A stretch of DNA of 64,000 nucleotides from the NCBI GenBank assembly GCA_951406725.2, contig OX597818.1, positions 116,622,001-116,686,000 of the forward strand, in the 5' to 3' direction. The position numbers were made by a program, and so were the translations under genes. The stretch is from Octopus vulgaris. Its lineage: Eukaryota. The notes beneath the pieces were generated by a model. That model was not told the origin of the DNA. It ran no database searches and was given only the letters and a program-made list of their open reading frames with translations. Positions 8,250 to 60,508 of the stretch are shown here, piece after piece; within the stretch, counting starts at the first letter, position 1; every line of letters begins with the position of its first letter.

Positions 8250-9030
8250 ACAGCGGAATTTGAACTCAGAATGTAAAGACAGGTGATATAAAGCTAAGCC
8301 TGTTGTCCGGTGCTAACGATTCTTTTCTACTAAGGCCTGAACTTGGGGGGAGGGTGATAGTCGATTACATCGACCATAGTGCGCCACTGGTACTTAAGGA
8401 TGAAAGGCAGAGTCGGCCTTGGTGGAATTTGAACTCAGAACGTAGCGGCAGACGGTAATACCTATTTCTTTACTACCCACTAGGGGCTAAACATAGAAGG
8501 GACAAATAAAGTCAGACAAACGAATTAAGTCGATTATATCGACCCCAGTGCGTAACTGGTAGTTATTTAATCGACGCCGAAAGGATGAAAGGCAAAGTCG
8601 ACCTCGGCGGAATTTGAACTCAGAACGTAGCGGCATACGAAATACCTATTTCTTTATTACCCACAAGGGCCAAACATAGAACGGACAAACAAGGACAGAC
8701 ATAGGTATTAAGTCGATTACATCGACCCCAGTGCGTAACTGGTACTTATTTAATCGATCCCGAAAGGATGAAAGGCAAAGTCGACCTCGGCGGAATTTGA
8801 ACTGACAACGTAACGGCAGACGAAATACCGAAAAGCATTTCCCCCGGCGCGCTAACGTTTCTGACAGCTCGCTGCCTGAATAATAATAATGATTGATAAT
8901 AATAATAATAATAATAATAATCATCTTTTCTACTCTAGGCACAGGGCCTGAAATTTTTAGGGGAGGGGGGCCAGTCGATTAGATCGACCCTAGTACGCAA
9001 CGGGTACTTAATTTAATTAATTAATTAATA

Positions 9031-30554: not shown

Positions 30555-30713
30555 AAGAGCGGCTGTGTGGTGAGTGGCCTTCCTTACCAGCCACATGGTT
30601 CTGCGTTCAGTCCCACTGCGTGGCACTGTGGGCAATTGTCTTCTTCTATAACCTCGGCCCGATCAAAGCCTTGTGAGTAGATTTGGTAGACGGACACTCA
30701 GAGAAGCCCGTCG

Positions 30714-30776
<63 letters not shown>

Positions 30777-31030
30777 ATGTGTGTGTGTGTATGTGTGTGT
30801 GTGTGTGTGTATATGTTCGTGAGTCTGTGTTTGTCCCCCTCAACATCGAATAACAACCGATGGTGGTGTGCTTACGTCCCCCGTAACTTAGCGGTTCGGC
30901 AAAAGAGGCCGATAGAAAAAGTACTAGGCTTACAAAGAATAAGTCCTGGGGGTCTATTTGCTCGGCTAGAGGCGGTGCTCCAGCATGGCCGCAGTCATAT
31001 GACTGAAATAAATAAAAGAATATAAGAATA
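30555..31030 (+). mobile_element. SINE-B with internal (TA)n(TG)n
   Basis: ggctgtgtgg..gttcagtcccactgcgtggcac..gaagcccgtcgta[(TA)n(TG)n]..cagcatggccgcagtc. Confidence 0.9.
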
Positions 31031-31034
31031 TGTA

Positions 31035-31350
31035 TCCGCTTTGAAGTTTCTAGTCGAACAAGCCGCCTCCGTTACTTATTTTTCAAATCTGTTATTTATA
31101 TATCGGGGTTTTTCGACGAAGCGCTATATCACATGAACAAATGAAAAGCGGTTATTAAGCGGTGGAGGAGGAACAAACATAACACATATATTTATATATG
31201 CATATACACCGGGATTATCCACAGTTTTCGTTTACTAAATTCACCCACAAGGCATTGCTCAGTCCGCGACTATAATGAAAGAAATTGTTCAAGGATTGAA
31301 CCCGAGACCACGAAGTTACAAAACAAGCTTTCTCGTCACAAAACCACGTC
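31035..31350 (-). mobile_element. Old diverged SINE-B, inverted and abutting the previous copy
   Basis: gcggtggaggaggaacaaaca..aaattcacccacaaggcattg..attgaacccgagacca. Confidence 0.6.
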
Positions 31351-41412: not shown

Positions 41413-41604
41413 ATTTTACTCTTTTTACTTGTTTCAGTCATTTGACTGCGGCCATGCTGGAGCACCGCCTTTAATCGAGCAACTCGACCCCGGGACTTAT
41501 TCTTTTGTAAGCCCAGTACTAATTCTATCGGTCTCTTTTGCCGAACCGCTAAGTAACGGGGACATAAACACTAGGGGACAAACACAGACACACAAACACA
41601 CACA

Positions 41605-41660
<56 letters not shown>

Positions 41661-41820
41661 TACGACGGGCTTCTTTCAGTTTCCGTCTACCAAATCCACT
41701 CACAAGGTTTTGGTCGGCCCGAGGCTATAGTAGAAGACACTTGCCCAAGGTGCCACGCAGTGGGACTGAACCCGGAACCATATGGTTGGTAGACAAGCTA
41801 CTTACCACACAGCCACTCCT
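41413..41820 (-). mobile_element. SINE-B
   Basis: Well-preserved reverse-strand copy with internal (TA)n. Confidence 0.92.
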
Positions 41821-41985
41821 GTTTCTTTTTTAAAAAAAACAACAAAAAACAAGCGTATGCATTTTGAACAATGCGTTTTTGTTGTCTCCTCTAGAAATAT
41901 CATGATAATCCTGTCTGGAATGCATTTGATCCTAGCACTTGTGGATCAAATCGCATATCACACAAAGGAACAACAACGGAAATAT

Positions 41986-49800: not shown

Positions 49801-50894
49801 TATATAGTTTAGTGTACTTTAAAAGTACATTTAGACTATTTGTAAATTAAATTATTGGGAGTCTTTCGCAAACAAATACTTATTGAAAGTGTATAAGATC
49901 TATCTGGTCCTTTGAGACTTCCATGTACTCGTCAGCTGATAAATATATTCTTGACACTCCCATCCTTTGCCCATCAGGAAACTGATGAAACAGCTGATGG
50001 GAGTATGGTTTCTTTAGCAGCTTGTAGGTAGGTATTCACATTTAACAGACCAAGCTGGAGCAATGTGATACGAAATGTTTTCGTTACTCGACATCAAAAG
50101 GCAGAATAACCACCTCAGAAATTGAACCTACAACCACAAGAACGAGAGCTCAATACCCTAACCATTAGGTCACGTCCCCTAAAGCTTTGGAACAGTAAAT
50201 CTGTAATCAATACATCTGTGGATAATGGAAAAGGCTATACGGTATCTGATGAAAATCCCAACGCAGGATTGATATTAATCCGGCTGATCATTGTCTGCTG
50301 TTCGCCGTGTATCTGGAAGTACGTTGCTCACATCTGCTTAATGCGTACAGTTCTGACTAAAATCAATACACATGATCAGACTCTATATTAGCATTTGTAA
50401 CATATTTGATTATTTGTCAAATATTTATGCATTCCTGTCACACACCCGAAACGGTTTAACGCGTAATAATCACCGGCTATCATAATAATTCTGCCCAAAC
50501 TATTCATATGCTTTAATCAAAGATGCTAAGCTATAAATAATTTATTGTAATTAAGATTATGAGTTTCAATCGCACTATGAATAAGACCTGTATTATTGCA
50601 GATGCTGAGCCGTGAATAATAAACCGCGTCATCAATAATTGTTGTGACAGAATCTGAGTGAAGTAACAAACCGCTTGTATTCCATCTGTGGTTGTAGGAA
50701 CGGCTAGAAATAGCTAACAAATCCGTTTCAGTTCAGATAATAAAGAATATAAAAGAAAAATACATTCGATGAGATAATCCTACTTTCAGTAAGTTAGTGG
50801 AAGTGTTTCTTCATGTCTGTAGCATATATGTTCTACACATGACTTGTTGAAACAGTGGCGCTGTCTCATTCATCGTGTAATTTCAACAGATATA

Positions 50895-51063
50895 GGCGCA
50901 GGAGTGGCTGTGTGGTAAGTAACTTCCTTAACAATCACATGGTTCTAGGTTCATCCCACTGCGCGGCACCTTGGGCAAGTGTCTTCTACTATAGCCTCGG
51001 GCCGACCAAAGCCTTGTGAGTGGATTTGGTAGTCGGAAACTGAAAAAAAGCCCGTTATATATA

Positions 51064-51147
<84 letters not shown>

Positions 51148-51355
51148 TGTGTATGTGTTTGTCTCCAACATCGTTTGACAACCGATGCTGGTGTGTTTAC
51201 GTCCTCGTAACTTAGCGGTTCGGCAAAACATACCGGTAGAATAAGTACTAAGCTTACAAAGAATTAGTCCTGGGGTCGATTTGCTCGACTAAAGGTGGTG
51301 CTCCAGCATGGCCGCAGTCAAATGACTGAAACAAGTAAAAGCGTAAACGAGTAAA
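50895..51355 (+). mobile_element. Full-length SINE-B (tRNA-like head, CORE-like accttgggcaagt, internal microsatellite)
   Basis: ggcgcaggagtggctgtgtggtaag..(TA)n(TG)n..gactgaaacaagtaaaag. Confidence 0.93.
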
Positions 51356-52417
51356 TATCAACTGACATCGAAGAGGCTAAATGAGATTTTGTGATACAGG
51401 TGAAATAACAATTTGATTTTGAAAATCTTGACGCAATTGAAAGTTAAGTATTTGTTAGCTTGGAACGATTTTTGTCATAAATGTTTGTGCTTTATCAATG
51501 AAAAACGTGCTAAGTTAAAAATACTAGATGTTTGAAGAGAGGCAGTTTCGAGACTTCGTTTCATCTGATAATTTTTAATCCTTAACTATCGGCCTTTGTA
51601 TTGAATTCTTCTTTGAAAACCCAACGGGTTCAAGAAAGCATATACCAGTAATGTAATTTACTTGTGTCTTTCACACTTATCAATTCTCCTCCTTTCTACC
51701 TCTCTCTTCTCTCTCTCTCACTAACTCTCTCTCTCTCTCTCTTCCTCTGCTAAAAATTATATTTTCTGATATGTAAAAAAAAAACAAAACAAAAAATCAT
51801 TGTAAAATATTGTATGTAACTTCGAGAAAGATACACACTGTTTGGAAGTCTAGACTGGTATTGATATTTAATTGAGAATAAATAATGAGCATAGAAAAGT
51901 TATGAATAACATATTCTTCAACGGCCCACATCCTCACCCCCACCAAAAAATATATAGGTAAATAATCGCATTGCAGCGAATAAGAAGAACATTAAATAAA
52001 ACGCTGAAAGGTATTGACAAGAAAAAGATAAGAAAATAGCGAGCAAGTTTTGTTTATATGTGATGCAATTTCAATGATCAAGTTAAGAATAATATTTGCT
52101 TTTATGTCCAAATTTTGTAAAAGATACCGTTACAGTAACGACATGTTTTTTTTAGCTTTACATTTTAATTAAGTCCTTTAAATGAATTTCTGGACATCGA
52201 TATTTTTTTCAATAACTAAATATATCAGAAATATCGACTAAACAGAGGTAGGAAAAGAAATAAATAACAACAATATAGATAACTGTTTAAATATATATAT
52301 ATATAAAAAAAAGAAATATCAACAACGAAATTGAGTGGAAGGGCATCAACAGGAAATTGAACAACAAGGAATAACAATAAAAGGTTATAAGAAACATGTT
52401 CTTTTAAATCCCGTGTT

Positions 52418-57674: not shown

Positions 57675-57788
57675 TTGTTGTTGTTGTTGCTATTGTGGCT
57701 GTTGCTGTTGTTGTTGTTGTTGTTGTTCTTCTTCTTCTTCTTCTTCTTCTTCTTCTTCTTCTTCTTCATAACAACACACAACAACAAC

Positions 57789-57848
<60 letters not shown>

Positions 57849-57855
57849 AAGAAGA
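57675..57855. repeat. Compound triplet array (TTG)n(TTC)n(CAA)n(TAA)n(GAA)n
   Basis: Direct reading. Confidence 0.95.
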
Positions 57856-58481: not shown

Positions 58482-58913
58482 CTTTTACTCTTTTAAATGT
58501 TTCAGTCATTTGACTGCGGCCATGCTGGAGCACCGACTTTAGTCGAGCAAATCGACCCCAGGACTTATACTTTGTAAGCCTAGTACTTATTCTATCGGTC
58601 TCTTTTACCGAACCGCTAAGTTACTGGAACGTAAATACACCAGCATCGGTTGTCAAGCGATGTTGGGCGGGGGGGGGGGGGGGACAAACACAAACACACA
58701 AGCATGTACACACACATACATATATATATATATATATGTATACATATATACGACGAGTTTCCTTTCAGTTTCCGACTACCAAATTCACTCACAAGGCTTT
58801 GGTCGGTCCGAGGCTATAGTAGAAGACAATTGCCCAAGGTGCCACGCAGTGGGGCTGAACCTGGAACCATGTTGTTGGTAAGCAAGCTATTTACCATACA
58901 GCCACTCCTGCGC
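58482..58913 (-). mobile_element. SINE-B
   Basis: Full reverse-strand copy. Confidence 0.92.
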
Positions 58914-59251
58914 ATAAATAATGATGAATATTATGAATGGCAATGATACGTTTCATAATGCCAAACGAAAATATTTAAGTCACGATAAATATGTCCCAGT
59001 TACAATATGTAAAAGCAAGAATTTTTATCAGATGTTTAATATAATCAGGCAGTGAAATAACAAATAACGGGTCTTCCATAAAAAGCATAAAACTGATAAT
59101 GAAAAAATATATGGAAGAAAATGTGTTCCACAATTATTTTATGTGGAGACATTACAAAATATCACCCTGTTTCTTTCTCTGTCCATCTTTCTTTGAATAT
59201 GTGTGTGCGCCTGTGAATGTGTGTCTAAGTATGTACACATCTATGTATACA

Positions 59252-59397
<146 letters not shown>

Positions 59398-59476
59398 TAA
59401 GCACCTGTGTATACCGTTTGGTGGTGTAGGTGGTGGAGTAAATTGATCAAAATAAAAACATGATGCGAAGGATTCA

Positions 59477-59554
59477 GCGGTACATATGTTTCGGGCCTTT
59501 ATTAGACAGATTTATAACAATGCATAATGTATGTCTGTGGCCTTCTTCAGCCGC
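59477..59554 (-). ncRNA. Minimal type-I hammerhead motif (mirror copy)
   Basis: Reverse complement of 59950-60027. Confidence 0.72.
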
Positions 59555-59949
59555 GCACAACAGCTTCCACAAGGACATGTGTTACATCAAAAATTCTTGG
59601 TTGGGGATGCAAATCCTCCCATTCGCGTACGACATAATGCGGCAGCAGCATAGAATTGAAGCGTCCATCTCTTTCTTCTCTCAATGTAGGATGAGGAAAG
59701 ATGGATGTTGAAGTAATGTAAATAAATAAATACATGTATATACGTGAAGATGGAGGGGACGTATATACATGTATTTATTTATTTACATTACTTCAACATC
59801 CATCTTTCCTCATCCTACATTGAGAGAAGAAAGAGATGGACGCTTCAATTCTATGCTGCTGCCGCATTATGTCGTACGCGAATGGGAGGATTTGCATCCC
59901 CAACCAAGAATTTTTGATGTAACACATGTCCTTGTGGAAGCTGTTGTGC

Positions 59950-60027
59950 GCGGCTGAAGAAGGCCACAGACATACATTATGCATTGTTATAAATCTGTCT
60001 AATAAAGGCCCGAAACATATGTACCGC
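59950..60027 (+). ncRNA. Minimal type-I hammerhead ribozyme motif
   Basis: gcgg-CTGAAGA-a-ggcc..ggcc-c-GAAA-catatg-TA-ccgc; helix I 4 bp, palindromic helix III ACATATGT, GUA triplet (predicted cut after 60023). Confidence 0.72.
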
Positions 60028-60115
60028 TGAATCCTTCGCATCATGTTTTTATTTTGATCAATTTATATATATATATATATATATATATTATATTATATAG
60101 ACATACGTGTATGCA

Positions 60116-60202
<87 letters not shown>

Positions 60203-60212
60203 AATATATATA

Positions 60213-60410
60213 CTTTATTTAAAGCAGCTGAAAATTCAACAAAACCTGTTACTCTGAGTTTCCCGTTGCCGTCCGATGAACGGCAACGGGAAACTCAGAG
60301 TAACAGGTTTTGTTGAATTTTCTGCTGCTTTAACTAAAGCATATTACTCTACCACTGGTATTTGAGTACTCTTTTTTCCACCTTGTTTCACATTTATGTG
60401 TTTACTCCGC
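60213..60410. mobile_element. Second foldback insert (60-bp arms, 7-nt loop, ~70-bp tail) with a variant hammerhead-like motif
   Basis: 60213-60272 is the reverse complement of 60280-60339 (2 mismatches); gt-CCGATGA-a-cg-gcaa-cg-g-GAAA-ctcagag-TA-ac; (TA)n on both sides. Confidence 0.75.
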
Positions 60411-60448
<38 letters not shown>

Positions 60449-60455
60449 TAAATAT

Positions 60456-60508
<53 letters not shown>

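Follow-up and report, generated by a model that had tools for sequence, protein, structure and literature searches.

Insertions of Penelope-like elements (PLEs) typically combine an inverted, 5'-truncated copy, a tail on one side only and a bias toward (TA)n targets (PMC8557442, PMC3846280, PMC8969392), and stumps without an open reading frame (ORF) are the usual product of their 5' truncation (PMC8557442). In vitro, a Poseidon protein both nicks AT-rich DNA and extends its two strands, and reverse transcription begins in an AC-rich stem-loop, at two sites that delimit the tail (PMC11167929). The Poseidon hammerhead cuts only with the protein; it is not needed for insertion, which core mutants did not block in vitro (PMC11167929), and what the hammerhead does in endonuclease-bearing PLEs is described as unclear (PMC8557442). 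PLE repeats carry minimal hammerheads with a palindromic helix III, in which a G10.1-C11.1 pair closes helix II and an extra base usually follows A9 (PMC4209133). Natural hammerheads with a 2-bp helix II and a mismatch at 10.1-11.1 also exist, and the core change U4C is known from a viroid hammerhead, where cleavage in vitro was much lower and infectivity was retained (PMC3088659). Recently active Penelope-like families have been listed in Octopus vulgaris, in a paper that makes no mention of hammerheads in its main text (PMC13282606).

Here we describe a foldback insert from O. vulgaris, found in a stretch of 64 kb that was analyzed as a whole (the window). The window is AT-rich, animal-type DNA with many microsatellites and dispersed repeats.

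A foldback insert and its neighbor in a (TA)n field

When the window was scanned for fold-backs with a perfect stem of at least 16 bp, two were found besides simple repeats: the insert at 60213-60410 and a first palindrome upstream of it. The arms of the insert (60213-60272 and 60280-60339) pair at 58 of 60 positions, with 43 perfect pairs next to the loop and mismatches at 60229/60323 and 60218/60334. In a shuffle control, run on the microsatellite-masked window with loops of up to 60 nt, the longest perfect stem was 10 to 16 bp in eight of eight shuffles, against the 43 observed. Each of the two arms carries a single change that its partner lacks (the family described below has A in >99% of depth at 60334), which argues against an assembly chimera. 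The insert is 198 nt long with (TA)n on both flanks. A sequence-only reading of this DNA had described it as (TA)n, inverted copy, longer forward copy and (TA)n, about 150 bp from the first palindrome; this architecture was borne out, with the forward arm running to 60410, and the gap measures 147 nt. No target-site duplication is readable in the left-flank (TA)n, and no second copy of the insert was found within the 64-kb window. The features are as follows.

8452-8876, 30557-31036, 41415-41821, 50890-51359, 58484-58919: examples of dispersed repeats
59396-60065, minus strand: first palindrome, with 307-nt arms, a 13-nt loop and a 43-nt tail on the left; CUGAAGA-core hammerhead motif; tail-start motif at 59430-59441
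60118-60212: (TA)n target field, left flank
60213-60272, minus strand: inverted, 5'-truncated copy, mirror of 60280-60339; its outer end matches the short 3' terminus of the family and meets (TA)n
60271-60272, plus strand: GT, which supplies native positions 2.2-2.1 of helix I and also the 2-nt microhomology of the inversion joint; alignments of family contigs extend through 60271
60271-60410, plus strand: forward, 5'-truncated copy, ending at the long 3' terminus of the family, where loose ends enter (TA)n in four of four runs
60273-60279, plus strand: hairpin loop, hammerhead core C3-C4-G5-A6-U7-G8-A9 (U4C); in the family, position 4 is C or T and position 7 is T or C
60280-60289, plus strand: 2-bp helix II with a GNRA cap; A10.1 stands opposite G here, T or A in other copies
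60290-60302, plus strand: G12-A13-A14-A15.1, palindromic helix III and GUA triplet; predicted cut after 60302
60303-60316, plus strand: helix I 3' strand, whose native partner is missing from this copy
60340-60410, plus strand: 71-nt tail on one arm only, starting with TTACTCYACCAC (60344-60355) and a predicted hairpin (60345-60368)
60411-60501: (TA)n target field, right flank

The loop reads exactly CCGATGA, which had been pointed out as lying one base from the CUGAUGA core, and the elements read downstream of it were all found in place: the cg-GCAA-cg mini-stem (60281-60288), GAAA (60290-60293), the near-palindrome ACTCAGAGT (60293-60301) and the GUA triplet (GTA, 60300-60302). Scored against the minimal type I hammerhead (C3 U4 G5 A6 N7 G8 A9, G12 A13 A14 A15.1, U16.1 and H17), this copy matches 10 of 11 conserved core letters, the exception being C at U4. 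The G10.1-C11.1 pair that closes helix II is absent, and two further pairs and the GNRA loop are present. Helix III is predicted to dimerize with itself through 4+4 bp (-7.4 kcal/mol). As had been claimed, helix I is cut to 2 bp in this copy (T60272-A60303 and G60271-C60304, followed by a C/A mismatch). In the predicted hairpin of this copy's transcript (-95.1 kcal/mol, 58 bp), helix II, GAAA and the cut site are buried. With helix I lost and the motif within such a hairpin, the ribozyme of this copy is likely dead. The Rfam covariance models gave no hammerhead hit at gathering score in the window; 63 Rfam matches of up to E=10 in 59390-60420 include no hammerhead family, and the weak miRNA-type ones reflect hairpins. 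The core letters A6-U7-G8 (ATG) also open a 29-codon frame (60276-60365, plus strand) that runs into the tail. PLE repeats can contain the first codons of an ORF (PMC11167929, PMC3846280); the N7=C variant abolishes this ATG, so the frame may be due to chance.

The first palindrome is an object of the same type on the minus strand. Its arms (59439-59745 and 59759-60065) are 100% identical over 307 nt, which suggests a young insertion or possibly an artefact. Its hammerhead motif has a 4-bp helix I and a long helix II, and the z score of its predicted tail hairpin is -1.9; the tail hairpin of the insert is not more stable than shuffles (z of -1.0 to -1.4). Overall, the two palindromes align poorly. 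They have TTACTCYACCAC in common, identical at 11 of 12 letters, where the inverted arm stops and 42-44 nt past the cleavage triplet. Anchored at the termini, a motif shared to this extent arose in 11 of 3000 shuffles and in 0 of 3000 random window segments, and unanchored in 7 of 150; an earlier shuffle figure was circular and was set aside. As judged from these alignments, the two palindromes are different families, and their 3' anatomy is probably shared. The insert had been called unrelated to the first palindrome, which holds over most of its sequence but not at this boundary motif. Likewise, the picture of two hammerhead-bearing families brought into one TA field by inversion stands as to the mobile family, the (TA)n and the inversion, and fails as to full unrelatedness.

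Some other features of the window were noted. Between the two palindromes lies a short non-TA island (60088-60117) with no match among the window self-matches listed. The dispersed repeats form families of 200-480 nt at 70-92% identity, SINE-like by size, with 184 pairwise matches of at least 100 nt. At 57726-57855, (CTT)n faces (AAG)n across an (AAC/AAT)n spacer, a simple-repeat fold-back.

Termini, inversion joints and helix I in the family

Part of 59400-60410 is found in public runs (20 of 24 listed). We collected all contigs of four runs (X1, X2, X3 and X5, under three organism labels) that aligned to 60213-60410 at 80% likeness, which gave 12481, 6188, 3530 and 3486 contigs, respectively, with 2110, 1522, 739 and 793 of them at least 99% alike. 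The set shows many diverged copies, and the insert is one copy of an abundant, high-copy repeat family; the summed contig depth used below does not measure copy number.

Two 3' termini characterize the family. At the long one, loose ends behind 60407/60409 enter (TA)n in 79/71, 57/36, 47/56 and 55/66 contigs of the four runs. At the short one, the loose ends behind 60344 are (AT)n in 69, 33 and 32 contigs of X1, X2 and X3, among the rows listed, and a C>T change at 60340, seen at 9-12% of depth, is linked to this terminus. The inverted arm of the insert gives way to (TA)n at the mirror position of 60339, and this is the short terminus when the overlap with TA is allowed for. Between left and right arms, at least 19 distinct joints were found, with offsets of 1-55 nt and up to 7 added letters (12 from the 15 listed rows of 30 in all, and 7 from 12 of the 14 rows in a second joint table). 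Most joints have short sides of 22-35 letters; the sign of the offsets flips with the strand and was set aside. The inversion points therefore vary. In addition, in four contigs 60307-60320 is connected to upstream letters that lead back to 60271; these are either very short head-to-tail hammerhead pairs, which could form the dimer in cis, or fold-backs centered just upstream of the core.

Contigs that reach 60271 run on upstream with letters missing from this locus, in at least 128, 103, 71 and 56 contigs of X1, X2, X3 and X5 (among the 24 listed of 458 loose-end rows, agreement of 0.63), and the last 14 letters are identical in the upstream consensus lines of the four runs. Set in register against 60305-60316, the last 12 of these letters (CTAGCAAAAACT) form 10 of 12 possible pairs, 8 Watson-Crick and 2 G-U. 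Pairing equal to this occurs at 17 of 63,987 window positions; shifted registers give 3-8 pairs, with 8 of 12 in the +1 register. Together with two pairs from GT at 60271-60272, helix I of the family comes to 12 of 14 positions. Opposite its inner mismatch stands 60307, a position that also varies (G>A in 28-48% of depth). For the 12-letter duplex, the predicted energy is a modest -6.0 kcal/mol, and 1.6% of 9141 window slices do as well. The complementarity supports the existence of helix I in the family. Where cctgt had been expected upstream, CTGT is found and the fifth letter is A (ACTGT), with pairing resuming for 8 more positions. The shared upstream letters also contain a T-rich run that ends in CTAG just before the outer end of helix I, which resembles a 3' splice site. 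The Penelope of Drosophila virilis has an intron that stops at the 5' end of helix I (PMC4209133).

Core variation

At 60274 (position 4), T accounts for 0.36, 0.42, 0.59 and 0.52 of summed depth in X1, X2, X3 and X5 (32, 19, 29 and 17 contigs). This T is probably under-counted, since the reference has C and a mismatch near the alignment edge favors clipping. The neighboring C3 (60273) lies at the edge and is unscorable. The C at position 4 is thus neither private to this copy nor fixed, and the proposal that U4C might be a family-wide variant had to be abandoned, with T in 36-59% of depth. CpG decay was rejected as the source of the split: G5>A is not listed at 3%, no changes are listed at the CpGs 60281-82 and 60287-88, and the CpG observed/expected ratio of the window is 0.93, so that there is no CpG depletion.

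In the four runs, no variants of at least 3% are listed at 60290-60302 or at the conserved core sites from G5 on. From the variant table of 15 rows, we omitted 60334 (changed only at this locus), 60340 (which goes with the short terminus), 60273 (at the edge), 60371 (outside the tested regions) and the left-arm mirror rows 60263 and 60268, and seven variable sites (at least 3%) remained. Tolerant positions hold six of these: in the hammerhead, N7, the GNRA N, 11.1 and the mismatch in helix I, and in the tail hairpin, its loop and its bulge. Such positions make up 15 of 66 when the tail hairpin is included (P=0.0003); for the hammerhead alone, 4 of 5 sites fall on 9 of 41 positions (P=0.0055). 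Both P values are optimistic because the tolerant classes were assigned after the variants were seen. The seventh site is position 4. This pattern suggests selection on RNA structure among the source elements. At 11.1, T in 14-25% of depth on the right arm would give an A-U pair.

The allele shares at 60274, 60263 and 60307 shift together over the four runs, which is only a hint of subfamily linkage. A fall in depth toward the core was set aside, as it is confounded by alignment edges and by the two arms. A subfamily with a different stretch before 60329 was seen in 34, 23 and 28 contigs of X1, X3 and X5, a sign that more variants exist in the stretch from the hammerhead to the short terminus.

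Luense et al. (2017) reportedly deal with small PLE hammerhead variants and may already describe a U4C variant. In the literature searched, we found no report of a U4C PLE family, a negative on which that paper or the supplements of PMC4209133 and PMC13282606 may bear.

Affiliation, origin and meaning of the insert

The copy described here, from a high-copy family with two (TA)n-joined 3' ends and variable inversion points, is likely the stump of an endonuclease-bearing PLE with a minimal type I hammerhead motif in its terminal repeat. We infer PLE membership from anatomy: the family contigs give only 30 loose letters beyond the aligned stretch, and neither part of the single ORF that defines these PLEs, a telomerase-like reverse transcriptase with a GIY-YIG endonuclease, is linked to them. 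The PLE marks that we found are the inverted, 5'-truncated copy beside a forward copy, with variable truncation; an optional 3' tail on one end, with two 3' termini; and the (TA)n target at the locus and at both termini of the family. PLEs can also form a pLTR by partial tandem duplication, and either such a tandem or a fold-back would account for the four contigs that lead back to 60271. Of the marks of a minimal type I hammerhead, we found helix I in the family and the short palindromic helix III.

The closest reported insertions, those of endonuclease-bearing PLEs, have the same head-to-head inverted truncated copy, tail at one end, palindrome at the joint and microhomology (PMC3846280, PMC8557442, PMC11167929), together with the (TA)n or AT-rich target, the hammerhead near the 3' end and the two 3' termini. 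Unlike them, our insert is only 198 nt long, and its tail measures 71 nt rather than the 30-40 nt reported (PMC8557442). PLE clades include Penelope/Poseidon, Neptune, Nematis, Hydra and Naiad. With metazoan PLE minimal hammerheads the octopus motif shares the type I form, a near-canonical core, a helix III predicted to require a dimer, and occurrence as many dispersed single copies in sequence families (PMC4209133, PMC6765202). It differs from those presented in PMC4209133 in its helix II of 2-3 bp with a GNRA loop (7-8 bp in Schistosoma and 6 in D. virilis), in the absence of the G10.1-C11.1 pair, in position 4 being split between U and C, and in the longer helix I of the family (12 of 14 positions versus 4-5 bp). 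The core change is the same as in the viroid U4C hammerhead (PMC3088659), but here it occurs in a minimal motif of an animal repeat family, at about 40-65% of depth. Animal non-LTR retrozymes are likewise non-coding, with a type I hammerhead and a relation to PLE repeats, but they are described as tandem units (bioRxiv 10.64898/2026.07.22.740005), whereas 60213-60410 is an inverted stump with a tail.

Further sources were also searched. Viral contigs gave 0 matches to the insert, and a single metagenome-contig match, in GC-rich DNA with no flanking similarity, was rejected as chance. In the part of the PMC8557442 supplement that was accessible, there was no helix III match, and three tail-motif matches lay inside unrelated GC-rich sequence.

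For the origin of the insert, we lean toward a route with two primers. The element protein would have nicked both strands of the (TA)n tract, and reverse transcription would have begun at two RNA sites, the tail end (60410) and the tail start (about 60339), giving two cDNAs primed from opposite strands of the TA tract, one per start site. Both cDNAs would have ended early, at the hammerhead, and a 2-nt GT/AC microhomology would have allowed their head-to-head fusion, so that the core remained as a 7-nt loop. The full-length family RNA would form the predicted helix I of 12 of 14 bp, a helix II of 2-3 bp capped by GNRA, and the palindromic helix III, which would need a second copy (a dimer) to cut after GUA. 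Both U4 and C4 versions are present in the family, of which C4 would be the slower to cut.

The inversion joint alone fits a close rival equally, in which reverse transcription from the tail end yields one cDNA that halts within helix I, folds back on its own GT/AC and is extended on itself as far as the short terminus. Such a fold-back is a real possibility: self-priming has been proposed for PLE junction palindromes (PMC3846280), the 7-nt loop and the 2-nt microhomology fit it, and the arms agree at all three polymorphic sites that they have in common (60284, 60289 and 60307), although agreement in three common alleles is weak evidence. It would require a separate reason for the stop exactly at the recurrent short terminus, and several joints are more suggestive of end joining, being offset by 1-2 nt with 1-7 letters added.

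It is unlikely that the family never had a gene of its own and is a non-autonomous, non-coding PLE parasite, retrozyme- or SINE-like, with a hammerhead end. No ORF is linked to the family, animal retrozymes have been proposed to derive from PLE repeats (bioRxiv 10.64898/2026.07.22.740005), and the four contigs that lead from 60307-60320 back to 60271 could be short head-to-tail units. These contigs could equally be fold-backs, however, as helix I has a 5' strand that, once inverted, looks like its 3' strand; there is no tandem array at the locus, and the lack of an ORF is what 5' truncation of a PLE usually leaves (PMC8557442).

A palindrome created by fold-back of an ordinary repeat copy during assembly or library preparation is very improbable. 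No aligned contig spans the whole of 60213-60410, and its exact joint was not singled out among the contigs, but of the two differences between the arms one lies on each, the end of the inverted arm is a genuine family terminus, and similar joints occur in independent runs. Weakest of all, and largely refuted by the family contigs, is an ordinary MITE in TA sites, bounded by terminal inverted repeats and resembling a hammerhead by chance: the insert is short, palindromic, high-copy, non-coding and TA-flanked, and Rfam lacks a hammerhead match, but instead of the shared palindrome with fixed terminal repeats of a MITE we found asymmetric ends, with the 71-nt tail on one arm, and a variable center with its many joints, most center contigs enter non-palindromic upstream letters complementary to 60305-60316, and variation avoids the hammerhead core.

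Returning to the PLE stump with two primers, its architecture is already known, and the U4/C4 split in an abundant family is its sole notable feature. Tentatively, we suggest that a Penelope-type family in this lineage amplified U4 and C4 master versions side by side, both with a long helix I, a helix II of 2 bp and no G10.1-C11.1 pair, that C4 spread at least as well, and that the tail-start motif common to otherwise different families marks the protein-binding and priming site that sets the end of the inverted arm. Such stumps evade both Rfam and descriptors that require CUGANGA and resemble MITEs, and they may be missed or misfiled in repeat libraries. With thousands of contigs, the split lets the U4 and C4 versions be compared in their copy number, their age and where they are truncated. 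If the suggestion is true, the family would be a natural experiment, indicating either that a slow U4C ribozyme suffices or that cleavage is dispensable for the spread of PLEs.
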